DNA from: Rubripirellula sp.
Lineage (GTDB): Bacteria; Planctomycetota; Planctomycetia; Pirellulales; Pirellulaceae
Reading direction: 5' to 3'
Assembly (NCBI GenBank): GCA_965216875.1
Contig: OZ244207.1
Coordinates: 8,200,644 to 8,264,643 of the forward strand
Length of the DNA: 64,000 nucleotides
Of the stretch, positions 25,557 to 36,429 are shown in pieces; the first letter of the stretch is position 1; each line of letters starts with the position of its first letter. The notes beneath the pieces were generated by a model that saw nothing but the letters and a program-made list of their open reading frames with translations, was not told the origin of the DNA and searched no databases. Both the position numbers and the translations under genes were made by a program.

Positions 25557-25790
25557 TTGCAAACGCTAGAGCGGGGTGAGGTGGAGGGGAAAGAGGGCAG
25601 TCTATCCCAAACCCCACGTGTTCGCTTCCCTTTCGCGGATGAAACGACGCGTTTGCCGCTCGCGCTCGAATGAATTCACTCCATTCACAAGCGACTTGAG
25701 ATTTGCACCATCGCCTTGAGATTCTTGACGCCGATGCCCCCGATGCCGATGACCCCGACGCAAAATCCTGCTCGACATCCGGCGTCCGCG

Positions 25791-26102
25791 CTACTCCAGC
25801 AAGTCGGTCTCGGCCGTTTCAACAACTTCGCTCATCAAACCAGCAGAAACCTCCGTCGCTTCCACCACGTTTTCTTGCTGGTCTTGGTTCGGCAGCCAAC
25901 CGTTCTTCTTGGCGATCCGTTTCATTTCTTCCGTGCGTTCCTTGGCGTACTGCGACTGGATCAGCATGCGGTCGATGTCTTCTTGGCTGGTTCGAAATGG
26001 TGCGTATTCTTCTTCGGTCGCAACGATCTCCGGCTCCGGCGGTCGTTCGCATCCAACAAAGAACAACGCCCCCATTACAAACATCCATCCAAACCGTGTC
26101 AT
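25791..26102 (-). CDS. Small hypothetical lipoprotein
   Basis: MTRFGWMFVMGALFFVGC has a hydrophobic stretch and lipobox; fills the gap between flanking minus-strand genes. Confidence 0.55.
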   Translation of the reverse strand: MTRFGWMFVMGALFFVGCERPPEPEIVATEEEYAPFRTSQEDIDRMLIQSQYAKERTEEMKRIAKKNGWLPNQDQQENVVEATEVSAGLMSEVVETAETDLLE

Positions 26103-26209
26103 GAAAGGTCTCACTTAGTTGTAGGCTCCGCCCCGGATACAAATCTGATCAAACGTCAGTCACATGAAAAGTGAACATATGCAAGCTAGCACCTGAACAA
26201 ACGATCGCT

Positions 26210-26623
26210 CTACGACGACATTCTGCGAAGTCGGTGCAGTTCGCCGCGATTGGGTTTGGCAAGTCGATTGCTCTTTAAAAACAGGAGAAAGCGATAGGCA
26301 TCAATGGGGTGTCGGCGATGGGTTGTTGGCCATTCGTTAGTGGCAAAATACCGGAACGTTTCTAACCCTTGGTCGCCAAGAGCGGCTGTGCTTTCTGGTG
26401 CCAATTCACACACTTCATGCCATCGTTTCACGAGCAGTGTTTCGGCTTGCTCTTCAAGTTGTGCGTGATCGATTGCAAGAAATGCCGGAATTGAATTCGT
26501 GTCGACACGCAAATGTTTGGCAACGAATTCTGGGGATTCAGCAAATTCGTCTCTTAGAGTCTGGCTTGAAAGCAGTCGTGCAAGTGCTGTCACAAAGTCG
26601 ATTGGCGCCTCGGAATCATCCAC
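26210..26623 (-). CDS. Putative MNIO partner protein (small helical protein downstream of DUF692)
   Basis: 8-nt overlap with the DUF692 stop; 'LEEQAETLLVKRWHEVCELAPES...F..FA...P......DAYRF' pattern resembles proteins encoded after DUF692 genes (from recall). Confidence 0.6.
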   Translation of the reverse strand: MDDSEAPIDFVTALARLLSSQTLRDEFAESPEFVAKHLRVDTNSIPAFLAIDHAQLEEQAETLLVKRWHEVCELAPESTAALGDQGLETFRYFATNEWPTTHRRHPIDAYRFLLFLKSNRLAKPNRGELHRLRRMSS

Positions 26624-27401
26624 GCAGATTCTCCAGGGCCTTCAAGTCTGCTTCGATTTCGTCCAACGCATCCAGTCGCAGGTCTCGTTCAAGCGTCACG
26701 GCTTCAACGCCACTGTATTGGATGACTTCAGCGACCAATTCCAGCAGGTCGTCCTGGATGCGGGCCGAATGATGATCGTGGTAGCGTCCGTTGCGAATGC
26801 TGTAACCGACGACGTGCAATTGTCTGATGCTTTTGCGGTCAACCTCGTGAAGCCATGCGATCGGATCATAGCCATGGTTCTTGGCGTTGATAAAGAGGTT
26901 GGTGACATCGAGCAACAGGCCGCAACCCGCACGATCGCACAGTCGATTGAGGTACTCGGTTTCACTGAAGTCGCCGGCCAACTCGAGCGAGGTTGTGATG
27001 TTTTCAAGAATGATCGGTTTTTCACACCGTTGGGCAACTTCCACTGCGTGGTCGACCAGAACAGAAAGTGATGATTCGTCGCGTTGCACGGGATTCAGGT
27101 GGCCCAAATCGACTTCGTGAGAGCGCGTGAACGCGACGTGTTCGCTAACCCAATCGGCATCTGCAGTCTTGGCCACGTGTGTGAACTTTTCGAGCGTTTG
27201 TTCGCAAAGCGGCCCCGGAGTTCCAAGGGAAAGACCGAGTCCGTGCACAAAGATCGGGAATTGCTGTGTCAATTCACGTAGCGTTTCGTCATGTCCGTCG
27301 AAGAAATGTTCCGCGGTCACCTCGAGGCTTCGCACCAAATCGGCGCTGTCGAGGATCCACTCGTGCAATGCTGGTCGGTAACCGACACCTAGCTGCCGCA
27401 T
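26616..27401 (-). CDS. DUF692 family multinuclear non-heme iron-dependent oxidative enzyme (MNIO)
   Basis: 'LGVGYR', 'EVTAEHF', 'HGLGLSLG', 'SEHVAF', 'ILENI', 'LLLDVTNLFINAKN', 'LHVVG', 'DHH', 'LERD'. Start moved to ATG 27401. Confidence 0.93.
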   Translation of the reverse strand: MRQLGVGYRPALHEWILDSADLVRSLEVTAEHFFDGHDETLRELTQQFPIFVHGLGLSLGTPGPLCEQTLEKFTHVAKTADADWVSEHVAFTRSHEVDLGHLNPVQRDESSLSVLVDHAVEVAQRCEKPIILENITTSLELAGDFSETEYLNRLCDRAGCGLLLDVTNLFINAKNHGYDPIAWLHEVDRKSIRQLHVVGYSIRNGRYHDHHSARIQDDLLELVAEVIQYSGVEAVTLERDLRLDALDEIEADLKALENLRG

Positions 27402-28450
27402 CCGCCACAACCTCCTCCGCCGCCACATCCCCCGCCGCAACTGCTGCAGCTACTGCACCCGCTACAGCTCGAGAATCCAGATGACCCACAACTTCCGCCG
27501 GACGAGCGGGGCAGTTCGCCGGTCACCTTGTAGTACACCAAAATCCCAACAAAGAAGAATCCAAAGTAAAGCAGAGCCCCCATTTTGACAACGATTCGTC
27601 CCATGTCTTCTACGTAGAAGACGGACCAGATCGCAAGTCCGGCCAGTGAGTACAAGACGACCGCTGGGATCAACGCCATTCCTCCGAGGTCGTTTCGAAA
27701 CACCTCGCCCTCGTCTGGCGTGTCGGTCTGTGTGAACACCAGTGTTGCCGTTGAAACGAGCAAACCGAACACCAGGAAGCCGACTCGGGTGTGGCCGTTT
27801 GCGAGGGAGTCGATCAACTGGGCGATTCCCGTTCCGCTAACAACAATCAAGGCGGCGTGGTTGATGATGTCGGCGTCGATCCAAAGGGCGCGCACGACGA
27901 GATTGGCGACACATGCAACGACAAAGGCGGCAAAAAAGAAATTCAAGAACGTTCGCCCGTCGACATCACGCAATGCCAGGAACGAGACCGTCGCAACGGC
28001 CGCGGCACCAACGTAGATCGCACCAGCAACCACATACTCGTTCGACAACAGACTCAGGCTCTTTCGCTCGGGGCGAGAGACATCCAGTTTTCGCCCCAGC
28101 TTTTTGTGGTAGCCACAGTGGATGCAAACAACAGCACCTTCGGCAATCTTTTTGCCGCAGGTTTCGCACGGCACTTTTTTCTCGGGGTGAGACTTGAGCG
28201 CAGGTGCCGAGGCCGCGGCCAAGAATGCGCCTGCAGTTGCCGCCGCCGATTGCGCCGGCGTGCTTTGCGAAGGATCGCGTTTGAGTCCTGTGGTTTTCTT
28301 TTCCGTCTGGGGCGTTTCGCTTTGTCCTTTGATCTTTGGAACAGAAAACGATTCACCACACCCGGGGCATTTCGCTCGCTTTCCCGAATGGTGCGCGGGA
28401 ACGCGAAGTTTCTTGCCGCACTTGCATCGAAGTTTCAACATTCCGCTCAT
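27389..28450 (-). CDS. Zinc-ribbon membrane protein with C-terminal Cys/Ser/Gly-rich tail (TIGR04222-like putative MNIO substrate)
   Basis: N-terminal CKCG..CPGCG and CETCG..CIHCG; about six hydrophobic segments; ends SGGSCGSSGFSSCSGCSSCSSCGGGCGGGGGCGGCGS*; overlaps the DUF692 start by 13 nt. Confidence 0.8.
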   Translation of the reverse strand: MSGMLKLRCKCGKKLRVPAHHSGKRAKCPGCGESFSVPKIKGQSETPQTEKKTTGLKRDPSQSTPAQSAAATAGAFLAAASAPALKSHPEKKVPCETCGKKIAEGAVVCIHCGYHKKLGRKLDVSRPERKSLSLLSNEYVVAGAIYVGAAAVATVSFLALRDVDGRTFLNFFFAAFVVACVANLVVRALWIDADIINHAALIVVSGTGIAQLIDSLANGHTRVGFLVFGLLVSTATLVFTQTDTPDEGEVFRNDLGGMALIPAVVLYSLAGLAIWSVFYVEDMGRIVVKMGALLYFGFFFVGILVYYKVTGELPRSSGGSCGSSGFSSCSGCSSCSSCGGGCGGGGGCGGCGS

Positions 28451-29226
28451 TCGTCCTCCCCGGTGACTTCGAGCAATGTGACCTCTTCGGGAATCGCGTC
28501 GATCGCTGCGGCGGCTTCGGCAACCCACTGAATCATCGTCGCATAGATCGTTCGAACGGCATCGACGTTCGCGAGATCGCTTTCGGCAACATCGCAGATC
28601 CGTTCGATTGAATCTTGTTCAAGATCGAATCGGCTTGCTGCTTCGATTAAGGTTTCACGCGCACCCTCAGGCCGTGCGACGGGATCGGACTTCAATGCCA
28701 GAGCTGCGCCCAGCGTTCGAGCCAACGCGGCGTGATCGCGTTTGAATTTAGGCATCAGGTCGCGTGCACGCTTGTGTCGAGTCAGGTACGCGCTTTGCAT
28801 TCGCAGCAACAGGTTCTTTAGCTCCTGCTCACACCTTAGCCTGAGGTGGCTCGAATCGATTTGAAGACCTTCCAGTACATCCTCACCAGTAATCAGCTGG
28901 TGGCAGCGTTTCATTTCCAAAAACGTAATAGGGAAAACGTCGGTTGAGGCCCGCATCTCTTCGGGAGAGTGCACCATTGGCGTGATGCGTTCGCTCCCCT
29001 GGACGAGGTCGTAGGCAGACGCCAATTTCTCGAGCGTGCTTGAATGAACGTTGTCGATGACGATCAACACATGAATTGGAATTGATTCGTCAGCGACCAC
29101 ATTCTGCTGAGCATGCGGTCCGTGAAGGATGATGGAAACGAGCGAGGGGCCCATCGCTGTCGGAATCGTTTCCTTGAGCGATTGGATCACCGTGGCTTTC
29201 GATGCCGGTCGTCTACGAAAAAACAT
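28447..29226 (-). CDS. Nucleotidyltransferase-fold protein with degenerate catalytic motif
   Basis: 'SLVSIILHG...IHVLIVID', 'DVFPITFLEMK..H..I.GED', 'LRLRCEQELK..LLRM'; GAGAGG RBS; ATGA overlap with the next gene. Confidence 0.6.
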   Translation of the reverse strand: MFFRRRPASKATVIQSLKETIPTAMGPSLVSIILHGPHAQQNVVADESIPIHVLIVIDNVHSSTLEKLASAYDLVQGSERITPMVHSPEEMRASTDVFPITFLEMKRCHQLITGEDVLEGLQIDSSHLRLRCEQELKNLLLRMQSAYLTRHKRARDLMPKFKRDHAALARTLGAALALKSDPVARPEGARETLIEAASRFDLEQDSIERICDVAESDLANVDAVRTIYATMIQWVAEAAAAIDAIPEEVTLLEVTGEDE

Positions 29227-29340
29227 ATTGCCTCTCAGTTGGAGAATCCCTCTCTACTGGACAAGGCAATGATCGTAGCGTTTCAGGGCGCGCAACACCA
29301 AAGTGCGCAAATCGCCGACGGGGACGTCCCGAAACGAGAA

Positions 29341-32925: not shown

Positions 32926-33110
32926 GTTTGGACCGGCAATGACAGGAAGTGAATGGCCACCGGCAAACTTGGTCGCCGCCGGATGACCTCTTTCGAAGTC
33001 GAGCTCAACGTGTATTGTAACCATCCGAGGTGTCGCAGCGCCAGCTCACGTTGCTTGGTAAAAACACGCCGGTTACCCCGTTCGATTTCACCGCATTCCG
33101 CGAATTCATC

Positions 33111-33554
33111 ATGTTTTTTATCGATGTACTGTCACGAGTCGTACACGTTGGGACTGCCATCACGTTGGTGGGCGGAAGCCTGTTCATGTTGCTCGTGCTG
33201 ATGCCATCCGCAAAAGAGCTCGATGAATCACCACACAAACAGCTCGCCGCTGCTGTGGGTGGGCGTTGGAAGCGATTCGTTCACCTCGGCATCCTGTTGT
33301 TTCTCATCAGCGGGTTTTACAACTACTTTCGCGCGATGCCCAAGCACGAGGGCGATTCGCTTTACCACGCGTTGGTCGGTACCAAGATCTTGATCGCGAT
33401 GGTTGTTTTCTTCTTCGCATCAGCCTTGGTTGGCCGCAGCGCCAAGTTCGAAGGAATTCGGGCCAATCGCAGCAAGTGGCTCTCGATCACGGTTGTGTTG
33501 GCAATGATCGTGGTGTGTATCTCAGGCTTCGTCAAAATCCGAGGCCTACCCTAG
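33111..33554 (+). CDS. CopD-like four-helix membrane protein
   Basis: 'SRVVHVGTAITLVGGSLF', 'LISGFYN', 'YHAL.GTKIL'; four TM segments. Confidence 0.55.
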   Translation: MFFIDVLSRVVHVGTAITLVGGSLFMLLVLMPSAKELDESPHKQLAAAVGGRWKRFVHLGILLFLISGFYNYFRAMPKHEGDSLYHALVGTKILIAMVVFFFASALVGRSAKFEGIRANRSKWLSITVVLAMIVVCISGFVKIRGLP

Positions 33555-33559
33555 GTCAT

Positions 33560-34603
33560 CTAAGCGGCAAGTGCGTTGTTGAATTTGGGATGGAGCGGTT
33601 TCTTTAACAACTCGCAGATGTCACGCAGCGTGTTGCGCCAACTTTCAGCCCCAGCCGAATCGCCCAGCTCTGAATAGAGTTTGATCAGCTCGAGAGCTCC
33701 GCAAGCCACTTCCCACGTGTAGAGTTCACGATCTCGGTCGCGTTGTTGTTCCAACAGCACGTCGATCGCCTTGTCCTTACGCCCGGAGGCCAACCAATAG
33801 TCCGAGAGAGCCTCGTAGGTTCGATCGGTCAAGGTTTCGCCCATTGGTTTTACCGCAGCTCGATAAGCGCGCTCGGCACCCGATTGATCGCCCAATCGAG
33901 CCAATGCGCTGGCTCGAATCGCATGTAAAGCGCGGTCACACTGCAGGTCTTCCGGCGCGTTTGACAATCCGAGGTCAGCAAATCGAAGCTGCAACTCATA
34001 GTTGGCGTCGAGATGTTCAATAAACGCCATCCGTGCGTATTGCCAGCAGATGTAAAAACTCGATGCCCCGCTGCAGGCTTCGGCTGCGACGAATCTGCGG
34101 TCCATGTATTCGCGGGCCAACTTGAGGTCGCCCAAATCGAGATACATTTCGCTCATCGTCGAGAGATAGATGCAGCTATGATCTGATTTTGGCTCGCAGA
34201 TCCGGTCCAAGTACTCGTAGCTCGCGATGACTTCATTTTGGTATCCGTGCGGATCGCGACTTGCCATTCGCGAAGCGAGTACGTTGTTCGACATGATGCC
34301 AACAGGCATGTGAGCGTATTTGGGATCACGTGCCAAAATCGCATTCTTGACGAGCAATGTGTTCGCTTCGGCTGCGCGGCCGATGTCCTCGAGCGATTGT
34401 GCGAGGAAGTGCCTGATCCACAGTCCGAATTCGTCCTCACCCGCCAGTTGCAGCGATTGCTCGTAGTACTGGACACTCTCTCGCGCGTTGCCGTGATGGA
34501 AACCACGCGCGAAGACTGTGAACATCTGCTCGACGACGTGGGGGCAATCGGGGGCGTTTCGTCGGCGATCACAGTATTCCTCATACCAGTCCAAAACGTT
34601 CAT
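33560..34603 (-). CDS. TPR-like helical repeat protein coupled to the HSP90 gene
   Basis: Ala/Leu/Tyr helical repeats such as 'LARLGDQSGAERAY' and 'YSELGDSAGAESW'; ATGA overlap with the HSP90 stop. Confidence 0.6.
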   Translation of the reverse strand: MNVLDWYEEYCDRRRNAPDCPHVVEQMFTVFARGFHHGNARESVQYYEQSLQLAGEDEFGLWIRHFLAQSLEDIGRAAEANTLLVKNAILARDPKYAHMPVGIMSNNVLASRMASRDPHGYQNEVIASYEYLDRICEPKSDHSCIYLSTMSEMYLDLGDLKLAREYMDRRFVAAEACSGASSFYICWQYARMAFIEHLDANYELQLRFADLGLSNAPEDLQCDRALHAIRASALARLGDQSGAERAYRAAVKPMGETLTDRTYEALSDYWLASGRKDKAIDVLLEQQRDRDRELYTWEVACGALELIKLYSELGDSAGAESWRNTLRDICELLKKPLHPKFNNALAA

Positions 34604-36429
34604 GGTTGAATCAGTTGAGTCAATGCTTGGTTGAGCGTTTTGAGAGAGTCGACTCCTTCTTTCGTGTCGAGCTTGGCTTGGCACAGCAAACGAGTCATGT
34701 GCACGAGCAAGTTCATCGGCGCATCCTCGAGCTTGCCAGACTCGGCGAGTTCGTTGAACTGTTGGATCAATGGCGACGCCGTATTGAGATAGAAGATGCC
34801 ATCGAGATCAGGAATGGTCGATTCTTTTTGGCTAACCCAGTCGGGCAATATGTCGGCGATTCCGGGCATCAACGCATCGTCCTCGATCGCTCGCTTTGCG
34901 TTTCGCAGCACTTCCGCTTCGGGCGGGTAGCTAACCACGGCACAAAGCTGCGATGGCTCGAACGAAGCGGTCACAAACCGCTCCTGCAATTCAAGCTGCC
35001 CAAATCGATCCAACAAGGCTTGGTACCGTGTACTTGGTGATCGCTTGACCAACGAATCCATCACGCTGTCACACGAAACCAATTTGGCTTGTGGATTGTG
35101 TTGAGCATATCGATGTAAAAAGGGTTGCACGCCAAACCAGCTTGCGTCGATCACTGGCGCAGGGTGGGCATTGGCAAGTAGGCGTTCGGCGGGAGAAACG
35201 ATTGATTGGGAGCGGAAGTATATTTCGCTTGAGCCGCTCAGGCATTGATCGATCGTTTTTCGTCCCTGCGAGGTTTCAAGTTCAATACTGTCGACAAGCC
35301 TTTCAAACAAACTGTCGTCGCTCGACACCCAGCCCACGATCAAGTCAGTGTGTGAGCGTACGATCTCGTTCCATAGTTCGGGCTTGCTAGTCGAGAGCTC
35401 TTCAAGCGTCTTGAGTAACTGTTCTTCGACAGCTTGGGAAACGAGTTCGAAGCCTTCGTCTTCGTGAATGCTCTCGCGCGAGGCGGTCGGTTGCAGCATC
35501 GGACTGCTGACATACGCGCGGACAAATTTCGCCCAGTTCGGCAGCAACGTCCGATGATTGCTGCAAATGAACATGTTACGGATGTAGATCGATGCGTCAC
35601 CGAACTCCTGCAGCGACGCGATGGAGCGTTGTGGAACGTAGAACGCCCCCGACAAAGGCACTTTGATCGAGTCTAAGTTCAACTGGATGGTCCAATCCCG
35701 AAGCGGGAGAACGCAGAGTGGTTTCTGAATCGATCGAGACTCCAAGAAATCGTTCATCTCTCGGTCAAATTCGTCGGCCTCCCAAGGTGCTTGGCCGCGA
35801 TTGGCGGGAACCGATTGCCCTTCGAGATAGATCGGGTGCGGAAGCAGATCGCAGTATTCCGTGATCAGGTCACCAAGGACACGCTCGTTGAGTAGATGAC
35901 GCATCGCGGGTTTGCAAAACAAGCGGATCCGCGTGCCGACGGTGTCGCGACTGCCCGGTTCCATTTCATACGAGCCGTCGCCGCGGCTGCGCCAGCGAAC
36001 CGGTTTTCCATCAGGCTTGCCGCTGAGCGTTTCAAGTTCGACCGATTCGGCGACCAAGAACGCACTGAGGAACCCGAGTCCAAACTGGCCAATCAGCTGA
36101 TCGAGTTCGCGGCTTTCCCCAAACGCATCCGATTCGCGAAGGTGCCGCGTGTAGCCGCTGCCAATGGTCGTGAGGTACTCGACAATCTCGTTCTCGGTGA
36201 GGCCGGAGCCGTTATCTTCGATCTCAAGCAGGTGAAGCGAGGCATCGATTCGCACATCGATTCGCGGTTCGTACACCTGGCCTTCGCTTTCGATTTGTCG
36301 CCGCGAGCAGGAGTCGTGGGCGTTTTGAAGCAGTTCACGGACGCCCACGCGGCGATCCGCGTAAAGATGCTCGGCGAGAACCTGAAGCAAACCGGGGAGG
36401 TGAAGTTTGAAATCGTTTTCCGTGCTCAT
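34600..36429 (-). CDS. HSP90-family ATPase (divergent HtpG paralogue)
   Basis: 'RELLQNAHDS', 'EDNGSGL', 'IGQFGLGFLSAF', 'GT', middle domain 'LLPNWAKFVR...PTASRE'. Confidence 0.9.
   Translation of the reverse strand: MSTENDFKLHLPGLLQVLAEHLYADRRVGVRELLQNAHDSCSRRQIESEGQVYEPRIDVRIDASLHLLEIEDNGSGLTENEIVEYLTTIGSGYTRHLRESDAFGESRELDQLIGQFGLGFLSAFLVAESVELETLSGKPDGKPVRWRSRGDGSYEMEPGSRDTVGTRIRLFCKPAMRHLLNERVLGDLITEYCDLLPHPIYLEGQSVPANRGQAPWEADEFDREMNDFLESRSIQKPLCVLPLRDWTIQLNLDSIKVPLSGAFYVPQRSIASLQEFGDASIYIRNMFICSNHRTLLPNWAKFVRAYVSSPMLQPTASRESIHEDEGFELVSQAVEEQLLKTLEELSTSKPELWNEIVRSHTDLIVGWVSSDDSLFERLVDSIELETSQGRKTIDQCLSGSSEIYFRSQSIVSPAERLLANAHPAPVIDASWFGVQPFLHRYAQHNPQAKLVSCDSVMDSLVKRSPSTRYQALLDRFGQLELQERFVTASFEPSQLCAVVSYPPEAEVLRNAKRAIEDDALMPGIADILPDWVSQKESTIPDLDGIFYLNTASPLIQQFNELAESGKLEDAPMNLLVHMTRLLCQAKLDTKEGVDSLKTLNQALTQLIQP

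Follow-up and report, generated by a model that had tools for sequence, protein, structure and literature searches.

A predicted MNIO cassette of Rubripirellula with a membrane-anchored cysteine/glycine tail as likely substrate and a nucleotidyltransferase-fold leader gene

Among the described systems, those closest to the locus treated here are built around iron enzymes of the MNIO (DUF692) family. In an in silico study, membrane proteins of the TIGR04222 family with tails of serine, glycine and cysteine have been proposed as MNIO substrates that are served by partners of PME-type 2, defined as proteins with an NGO1945/TglI-like structure that lack the DUF2063 signature (Antoine et al., Microb Genom 2025; PMC12452194). 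Related MNIOs of the bufferin type make 5-thiooxazoles that bind copper, and one of these enzymes prefers a small residue after the cysteine (PMC13097082). A thiooxazole is also formed by SbtM, a radical S-adenosylmethionine (SAM) enzyme, which removes 4 Da at Gly-Cys (PMC9204691). In this report, we describe a four-gene cassette of Rubripirellula sp. located at positions 26210 to 29226 of a stretch of 64,000 nucleotides of contig OZ244207.1 (the window, to which all coordinates refer). It is of the kind already predicted and differs in two respects, an anchor outside the TIGR04222 family and a leading gene for a degenerate nucleotidyltransferase (NTase)-fold protein. The modification of a membrane protein by an MNIO is a published prediction, for which the locus offers a self-contained test set of one MNIO, one partner and one substrate; the link of a tail reader to TPM and LemA proteins is the part that could be new.

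Within the literature searched, the term TIGR04222 is confined to PMC12452194, its preprint and one unrelated genome paper. The clusters predicted there and the window cassette have in common a membrane protein without signal peptide and with a Cys-bearing Ser/Gly tail, whose gene lies directly before that of the MNIO, followed by a short gene for a DUF2063-like or PME-type 2 partner. In contrast to these clusters, the membrane protein of the window, P0002, lacks a large soluble domain and has two zinc ribbons and extra helices instead, its tail is predicted to be cytoplasmic rather than periplasmic, and an NTase-fold gene leads the operon. The bufferins and captophorins (BufB, HvfB, FonB; 5-thiooxazole copper metallophores) resemble the cassette in enzyme family, best curated model and the position of Cys before small residues, whereas the cassette has neither a Sec signal peptide nor a partner with DUF2063 and a RiPP (peptide made on the ribosome and modified after translation) recognition element (RRE) nor DoxX, and its MNIO stays under the equivalog cut-offs and belongs to a separate group in the tree; membership in the bufferins was rejected for the low scores and for the missing DUF2063 partner and Sec signal peptide. 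TglHI and MbnBC share with the cassette the nine iron ligands and the partner fold, but they act on a short soluble peptide and not on a membrane protein with many internal Cys, and the cassette has no PEARL ligase or transporter.

Genes and proteins of the cassette

The four genes lie on the minus strand, as do all features described for them, and encode in this order the NTase-fold protein P0001 (259 amino acids; 28447..29226), the membrane protein P0002 (353 amino acids; 27389..28450), the MNIO P0003 (261 amino acids; 26616..27401) and the all-helical partner P0004 (137 amino acids; 26210..26623). Neighbouring genes overlap by 4 nucleotides (ATGA; P0001/P0002), 13 nucleotides (P0002/P0003) and 8 nucleotides (P0003/P0004), as an earlier, sequence-only reading of the window had listed and as the open reading frame (ORF) coordinates and the sequence bear out; the start of the MNIO gene overlaps the stop codon of the tail gene P0002. 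The block 25563-29340, which includes an additional ORF of 107 amino acids, is an accessory cassette, because the genes flanking it, for a metallohydrolase and a sulfatase, lie less than 80 nucleotides apart in two genomes of the same genus (G001 and G002) in which the block is absent. Since both abut there without the block, the upstream metallohydrolase and the downstream sulfatase were rejected as parts of the cassette.

P0003 matches PF05114 (MbnB_TglH_ChrH) with 222 bits at a gathering cut-off of 25, in agreement with the DUF692 assignment made from the letters alone, and is the sole PF05114 gene in the 8.26-Mb genome. By alignment to TglH, with the ligand list taken from PMC10880893, the nine iron ligands map to H53, H88, E133, D165, N168, H196, D209, H211 and E238, and all nine are invariant in 50 of 50 aligned MNIOs; the loss of iron ligands considered in the earlier reading was looked for and not seen. 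P0003 remains below all NCBIfam equivalog cut-offs, the best model being that of the bufferin maturase BufB (NF050167, 185 versus 310 bits), and HvfB (NF003818) is matched with 152 bits at a cut-off of 360. In a tree of the 50 MNIOs, P0003 falls into a starred set of ten (SH-aLRT 98), separate from those enzymes of the same order whose precursors have a signal peptide, and the tail-linked MNIOs stand apart from the bufferin type. All ten members of the set are encoded beside a CGGCG-tail gene, so that the co-occurrence of DUF692 and Cys-tail genes, on which the sequence-only reading had made its proposal depend, is found here. A pattern scan of genome contigs for MNIOs yielded two distant loci only and was uninformative.

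For P0001, P0002 and P0004, no Pfam or NCBIfam family was matched above cut-off. The AlphaFold2 (AF2) model of P0004 (pLDDT 94.3) is all-helical, and its top three folds among 48,161 chains are NGO1945 (3dee; Z 7.2, root-mean-square deviation (rmsd) 3.0 over 79 residues), TglI (Z 5.8) and MbnC (Z 5.7); the Z values are modest, and it is the rank order that carries the evidence. Foldseek gave no match under E 0.001, with TglI at rank 3 (E 1.6). The DUF2063 signature was matched neither by P0004 nor by any of 16 aligned relatives, and because of this and its NGO1945/TglI-like fold, the modelled P0004 is assigned to PME-type 2. It has no RRE. A search of PDB sequences with the partner profile returned weak nitrile-hydratase matches only. 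The N-terminal helices of P0004 (residues ~10-60; window 26500-26600) are weakly similar to nitrile-hydratase-like leader peptides (NF038399, E 0.013; a relative reaches E 1.6e-6), and the fold matches include Os1348 and SonA; P0004 could possibly supply a leader.

P0002 contains 17 Cys residues. CxC/CxxC pairs span residues 9-31 and 95-112 and belong to a first zinc ribbon (C9, C11, C28, C31; 28358..28426) and a second one (C95, C98, C109, C112; 28115..28168), the latter with a PF13240 match below cut-off (E 4e-4). The N-terminus is a charged zinc ribbon and the first hydrophobic segment begins only at residue 140, so that a Sec signal peptide is absent. Six membrane helices predicted by hydropathy (residues 140-304; 27539..28033) are followed by a Gly/Ser tail of 38 residues (27392..27505), predicted from sequence, alignment and topology to be cytoplasmic, which ends in CGGCGS and contains eight Cys (321, 329, 332, 335, 338, 342, 348, 351), each preceding Gly or Ser; C332, C342, C348 and C351 are Gly-Cys sites. 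A homologue search returned 33 proteins, eight of them full-length at 26-33% identity and the rest weak, many of the weak matches being labelled TIGR04222 by their source. In the nine-row alignment of P0002 with the eight full-length homologues, all eight ribbon Cys and five of the eight tail Cys (332, 338, 342, 348, 351) are invariant, and the earlier description as a zinc-ribbon membrane protein with an eight-Cys tail stands. Only 2 of 401 genomes of the order have the rare full-length form, whereas at least the zinc-ribbon part was matched in 123 of them. The double zinc-ribbon N-terminus (28115-28426; G000:C1:3382558-3382923) is a module that membrane proteins of the order commonly carry; no Pfam family fitted it above cut-off in the window.

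The TIGR04222 model (cut-off 43 bits), whose use the sequence-only reading had suggested, matched neither P0002 at E 0.1 nor P0005 and P0012 at E 0.01 nor any protein of the genome, and TIGR04222 membership of P0002 was rejected for want of this match. P0002 fits the description of the family as integral membrane proteins with a low-complexity Ser/Gly tail and interspersed Cys, and when its profile was compared with 22 TIGR04222-like proteins by hhalign, the membrane hairpin (helices 3-4) and the tail aligned with 99.6%, a score partly owed to the low-complexity tail. By these comparisons, P0002 appears as a TIGR04222-related anchor minus the soluble domain, plus the common zinc-ribbon module. 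With 353 residues and 17 Cys, it can be set beside the Adjamnio-I precursors of 122-293 residues and 8-21 Cys, which are encoded ahead of an MNIO and a PME-type 2 partner (PMC12452194), the comparison being one of sizes and counts only. The ESM Atlas gave no usable match to the membrane part, and metagenome pattern scans for the membrane protein were uninformative.

The MNIO was found in 22 of 61 related genomes, in three of them at 58-64% identity. The four-gene order is kept in two genomes (G007, G026), and a third (G040) has three of the genes, without an adjacent NTase match. Among the metagenome loci, L068, L095 and L100 keep the order and L066 is shuffled.

The tail and its proposed modification

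Of 84 distinct tail proteins, 81 have CGG(G)CG at the C-terminus, followed by no more than three residues, and their N-terminal parts are unrelated. Single-helix peptides of less than 130 amino acids account for 44 of these tail proteins, the others being TIGR04222 proteins or zinc-ribbon forms. The common unit thus appears, from sequence, to be one membrane helix plus a ...CGGCG tail, and the membrane part would be an exchangeable anchor in the form of a single helix, a TIGR04222 domain or the zinc-ribbon six-helix form. The earlier view of a membrane protein rather than a short peptide as likely substrate is upheld for this locus only: many relatives are single-helix peptides of 48-113 amino acids with the same tail. 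The predicted substrate class widens in this way beyond TIGR04222 to any anchor with a CGGCG tail, and the relatives of 50-100 residues are easy to express.

The flank of a membrane helix that is rich in Lys and Arg lies on the cytoplasmic side (positive-inside rule). Since 38 of the 44 single-helix relatives have Lys/Arg more often behind the helix than in front of it, and none has the reverse bias, the tail is predicted to be cytoplasmic in these proteins, and the same is predicted for P0002 because of its N-terminal zinc ribbons and six helices. A cytoplasm-facing tail, contrary to the periplasmic location published for TIGR04222 proteins, would remove the puzzle of how a cytoplasmic enzyme gains access to it.

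We propose that the MNIO P0003, aided by the partner P0004, would oxidise Cys residues in the cytoplasm-facing Gly/Ser/Cys tail of P0002 to 5-thiooxazoles, that the modified tail would stay tethered to the membrane and bind copper or another thiophilic metal, and that the NTase-fold protein P0001 would serve as accessory tail reader. The observed basis consists of the gene coupling, the intact tri-iron ligands, the partner fold, the tail conservation and the co-occurrence of tail gene and MNIO. With regard to the single parts, the tail of P0002 is probably what the MNIO modifies, judging from gene context and sequence comparisons; for a thiooxazole as the product, which is argued by analogy, we see an even chance; and a role at the inner membrane as a metal buffer or sensor is offered tentatively, as the less probable option. 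For the account as a whole, in which the tail is tethered to the membrane, faces the cytoplasm and receives thiooxazoles so as to bind metal, the balance is slightly favourable. The sequence-only reading had likewise let MNIO and partner act on the tail, which genomic context, iron ligands and partner fold support, but the idea itself had already been proposed in PMC12452194.

Thiooxazole chemistry is favoured because MNIO and SbtM, enzymes of two unrelated classes known for one and the same product, occupy the same slot. At locus L195, an SbtM-family radical SAM protein (TIGR04082, 459 bits, cut-off 350) takes the place of the MNIO behind a TIGR04222 tail gene, and radical SAM/SPASM genes replace the MNIO behind NTase and tail gene at L195:7025-8158, L109:1574-2767 and L231, the L109 enzyme scoring above none of the cut-offs. 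The SbtM thio(seleno)oxazole system is comparable to the cassette in that it acts at Gly-Cys and a member stands in for the MNIO in this sister cassette; it differs in enzyme class and is absent from the window. The case of two enzyme classes and one product appears to be the best argument for the chemistry, an indirect one by analogy.

Several points weigh against this account. The product type is extrapolated, as P0003 is below every equivalog cut-off, and those thiooxazole MNIOs that have been characterised work with RRE-bearing partners of PME-type 1 (PMC13097082), whereas P0004 has no RRE. In PMC12452194, the modification of the tails is left open, the TIGR04222 tails are predicted to be periplasmic, and one third of the genomes with TIGR04222 genes lack an MNIO. 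When 20 TIGR04222 loci were inspected in a reverse test, an NTase gene was found within 1.5 kb in nine (three loci lack the flank), an MNIO gene in 13 and a radical SAM gene in two, and five loci of this phylum (L216, L217, L219, L221 and the broken L236) had neither of the two enzymes within this distance. Among the loci inspected, a conserved copper gene was not found. Concerning the topology, simple hydropathy counts 5 or 6 helices in the P0002 homologues, and few independent lineages stand behind the 44 short peptides.

Foremost among the alternatives, and unlikely in our estimation, is that the tail is the substrate of another chemistry, such as the formation of oxazolone/thioamide pairs, Cys cross-links or a TglH-like carbon excision at the last Cys. 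It would agree with the RRE-less, TglI/MbnC-like partner and with the grouping of the tail-linked MNIOs apart from the bufferin type, P0003 reaching none of the equivalog cut-offs; yet the closest curated model is a bufferin maturase, and an SbtM-family thiooxazole enzyme occupies the same slot at L195. As to the TglH-like variant, the tail of P0002 does not end in Cys, unlike TglA-Cys, and TglH Asn73 has no counterpart in P0003. A quite improbable alternative is that the tail binds metal or Fe-S in unmodified form and that the MNIO acts elsewhere. A flexible tail with eight Cys could bind metal directly, and TIGR04222 tail genes do occur without an MNIO, but the tight coupling and the tree congruence between tail and MNIO, the replacement of the MNIO by another Cys-modifying enzyme class and the absence of any other candidate precursor at the locus are more readily explained by modification of the tail.

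Tail genes of 48-113 amino acids, which would escape annotation, occur as one to three single-helix Cys/Gly-tail genes in marine metagenome cassettes (L070, L081, L083, L102, L117, L132, L143), where a conserved lipoprotein of 178 amino acids or a channel, either a potassium channel (PF00520) or a ligand-gated one, is often encoded next to NTase, MNIO and partner. At L030 and L188 (G305:C967), a minimal hairpin-plus-tail protein of 123 amino acids is part of the cassette, and the MNIO gene has an in-frame TAG. At L094:2319-4087, a Cys-tail peptide is followed by DUF350 and then by a protein with a Ser/Gly tail; DUF350 and Ser/Gly-tail proteins have been placed in PspA-linked operons (PMC11237479).

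The nucleotidyltransferase-fold protein and glycine-rich tails

As neither Pfam nor NCBIfam provides a matching family, the fold assignment of P0001 required a structure model. The AF2 model (pLDDT 93.7) consists of a polbeta-like domain and a helical bundle in the architecture of kanamycin nucleotidyltransferase (KNTase), which bears out the NTase fold proposed from the sequence. The sequence-only reading had assigned no role to this protein, whose description is the scantiest of the four. Superposition on ANT(4')/KNTase with VIA-align gave Z 13.4 and an rmsd of 3.9 for 219 aligned residues (Foldseek E 1e-4), and ANT(9) and HEPN-type bundles were further fold matches. ANT(4') KNTase, ANT(9) and AadA share the two-domain fold with P0001 (Z 12-13.4); unlike them, P0001, at 10-13% identity, lacks the metal triad and nothing points to antibiotic resistance; a role of its gene in aminoglycoside resistance was rejected.

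KNTase uses the metal acids Asp50 and Glu52, and the base Glu145 and Lys149 come from its helical domain (PMC4631478). In P0001, the metal motif is degenerate (G36-P37, P50-x-H52, no acid at 83-85): of the features that mark polbeta nucleotidyltransferases, the polbeta domain with bundle is present, whereas the G-S plus D-x-D/E motif with a third acid is not. At 50% identity, the family of P0001 falls into 2,717 clusters (E <= 1e-10), and no curated model covers it; PF01909 is touched weakly by 4 of 37 members, the ESM Atlas returned unnamed clusters only (the best one 14% PF01909), and a search of PDB sequences with the NTase profile gave one weak match (E 0.002). Most members have D-x-N: the position of the second metal acid is Asn in 33 and Asp in 1 of 48 labelled representatives, and the third position has no acid. 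G-S/G...S-D-x-N survives in many members. Family motifs in P0001 are STDVFP (94-99) and RLRCEQE (129-135), and the polar residues D96, E/D104, R129, C132, E133 and E135 are conserved family-wide.

These polar residues, the surviving G-S/G...S-D-x-N and the location of RLRCEQELK in the helical-domain region that supplies Glu145 and Lys149 in KNTase (PMC4631478; a putative equivalence) would suit a nucleotidyltransferase that is active in a non-canonical way and adenylylates the tail at Ser/Tyr or at the C-terminus before or after oxidation. Such an activity is nevertheless rather improbable in view of the prevalence of Asn over Asp at the second acid, the lack of a third one, P50 and H52 in the window copy, and the tail-MNIO pairs that occur without an NTase gene (L226, L229, L232, G040). 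P0001 is likely an accessory protein, non-catalytic or non-canonical, that binds or handles Gly-rich C-terminal tails. Because tail-MNIO and TIGR04222 loci occur without an NTase gene, the NTase-fold protein, judged by gene content, is not required for the MNIO-tail pair. A complex prediction for P0001 and residues 284-353 of P0002 scored 0.00 and gave no indication either way.

An NTase-anchored survey covered 138 loci, made up of the best 80 of 157 metagenome loci and of genome loci; the metagenome search patterns favour the NTase subgroup of the window, and the loci are redundant. Neighbours were counted at the 48 loci with at least 2.8 kb of upstream and at least 2.5 kb of downstream flank. 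A Cys tail with MNIO is present at 21 of these, a Cys tail without MNIO at 2, a Gly tail ending in Trp (W-tail) without MNIO at 12 and no tail recognised by the filter at 13, so that an MNIO accompanies 21 of 23 Cys-tail loci and none of the 12 W-tail loci; clustering at 70% left 17, 2 and 12 loci in the first three classes. Of these 13 loci, L132 carries tail genes on the opposite strand, the TIGR04222 gene of L181 is broken and the TPM protein of L202 has GSW as its last residues, and the other ten are exceptions to the pairing of NTase and Gly tail. At L206, L208 and L211, where Gly-tail genes are lacking nearby, an NTase-family gene directly precedes that of a protein of ~1,150 amino acids with matches of the SurA/PrsA and BamA kind.

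TPM proteins make up the W-tail neighbours, and LemA lies beside them in both loci checked. These TPM (PF04536)-LemA (PF04011) envelope cassettes resemble the window cassette in that the same NTase-fold family is found beside a membrane protein with a Gly-rich C-terminal tail; they differ in a tail that ends in Trp and has few or no Cys, in the lack of an MNIO and in a separate NTase clade. A quick tree of 72 NTase representatives gathers the 18 W-tail members in a single starred branch (97), from which all 30 Cys-tail members are absent, and the difference between the two types is one split and not many independent events. It is visible in RCEQE of the Cys-tail/MNIO NTases versus QCERE of the W-tail clade, Q134 being present in 30 of 30 Cys-tail members against R in 17 of 18 W-tail members and N138 in 28 of 30 against 0 of 18. 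A second phylum has an NTase gene in 31 of 151 genomes, and 27 of the 31 loci have an adjacent Gly-tailed gene (26 ending in W, mostly from one group of small genomes, and 1 with a Cys tail); nothing was found with the NTase profile in 171 genomes of the phylum of G830. In a group of small genomes of the second phylum (L254-L279), the NTase gene is preceded by that of a TPM-like protein whose Gly tail ends in W and has 1-2 Cys close to the end (…GCSGSW), intermediate between the two tail types. A match to LemA was absent from the window's genome.

The simplest reading of these neighbourhoods would be that the NTase-fold protein tracks Gly-rich tails rather than the oxidase. TIGR04222 proteins also match the C-terminal domain of DUF2207, a W-ending Gly-tailed family, and this match would fit a common origin of the tail types. 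Carried further, and offered as speculation that is more probably wrong than right, the NTase-fold family could be a dedicated reader or processor of Gly-rich C-terminal tails on inner-membrane proteins that links TPM/LemA to the Cys-tail MNIO and radical SAM cassettes; the RiPP-like modules would have arisen from a Gly-tail envelope module that gained Cys and a thiooxazole enzyme, and the cytoplasm-facing tail would be a metal-responsive switch on any anchor, whether a single helix or the zinc-ribbon protein of the window. The tie to the Gly-tailed TPM/LemA proteins would offer a way to approach the function of their tails. No link of NTase to MNIO or to TPM/LemA was found in the literature searched, subscription papers being mostly outside the search: the main text of PMC12452194 does not contain 'Nucleotidyltransferase', 'LemA' or 'TPM', two of its spreadsheet supplements do not contain NTase either, and the available texts of the phage shock protein (PSP) survey PMC11237479 and of a LemA preprint (10.64898/2026.10.21.759321) do not mention a nucleotidyltransferase.

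Surroundings of the cassette

The claim of the sequence-only reading that no short precursor, protease or exporter is adjacent was confirmed when ten neighbouring window proteins were scanned, and no protease or exporter recurs among the cassette neighbours read. That the membrane part is a leader only and the tail is cut off to act as a free peptide, as exchangeable and even single-helix anchors might suggest, is very unlikely given this absence and the lack of a conserved cleavage motif before the tail in the alignments.

No convincing promoter, terminator or boundary repeat was detected at the locus, and the GC content (54.8% versus 56.3%; 12th percentile) is unremarkable. The 107-amino-acid ORF on the minus strand (25791..26114) is lipoprotein-like and, by comparison with fetched loci and congeners, not a conserved part of the cassette; it has no homologue in the other fetched loci and a single weak paralogue-like match in the genome (E 0.037). 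Outside the inserted block, 3.8 kb from the cassette, the plus strand encodes a four-helix membrane protein (33030-33554) with a weak CopD-like match (NF033808, E 0.001, far below cut-off). On the minus strand, the gene of an HSP90/HtpG-like protein (33560-36429; NF010683, 300 bits, cut-off 455) overlaps that of a TPR protein.

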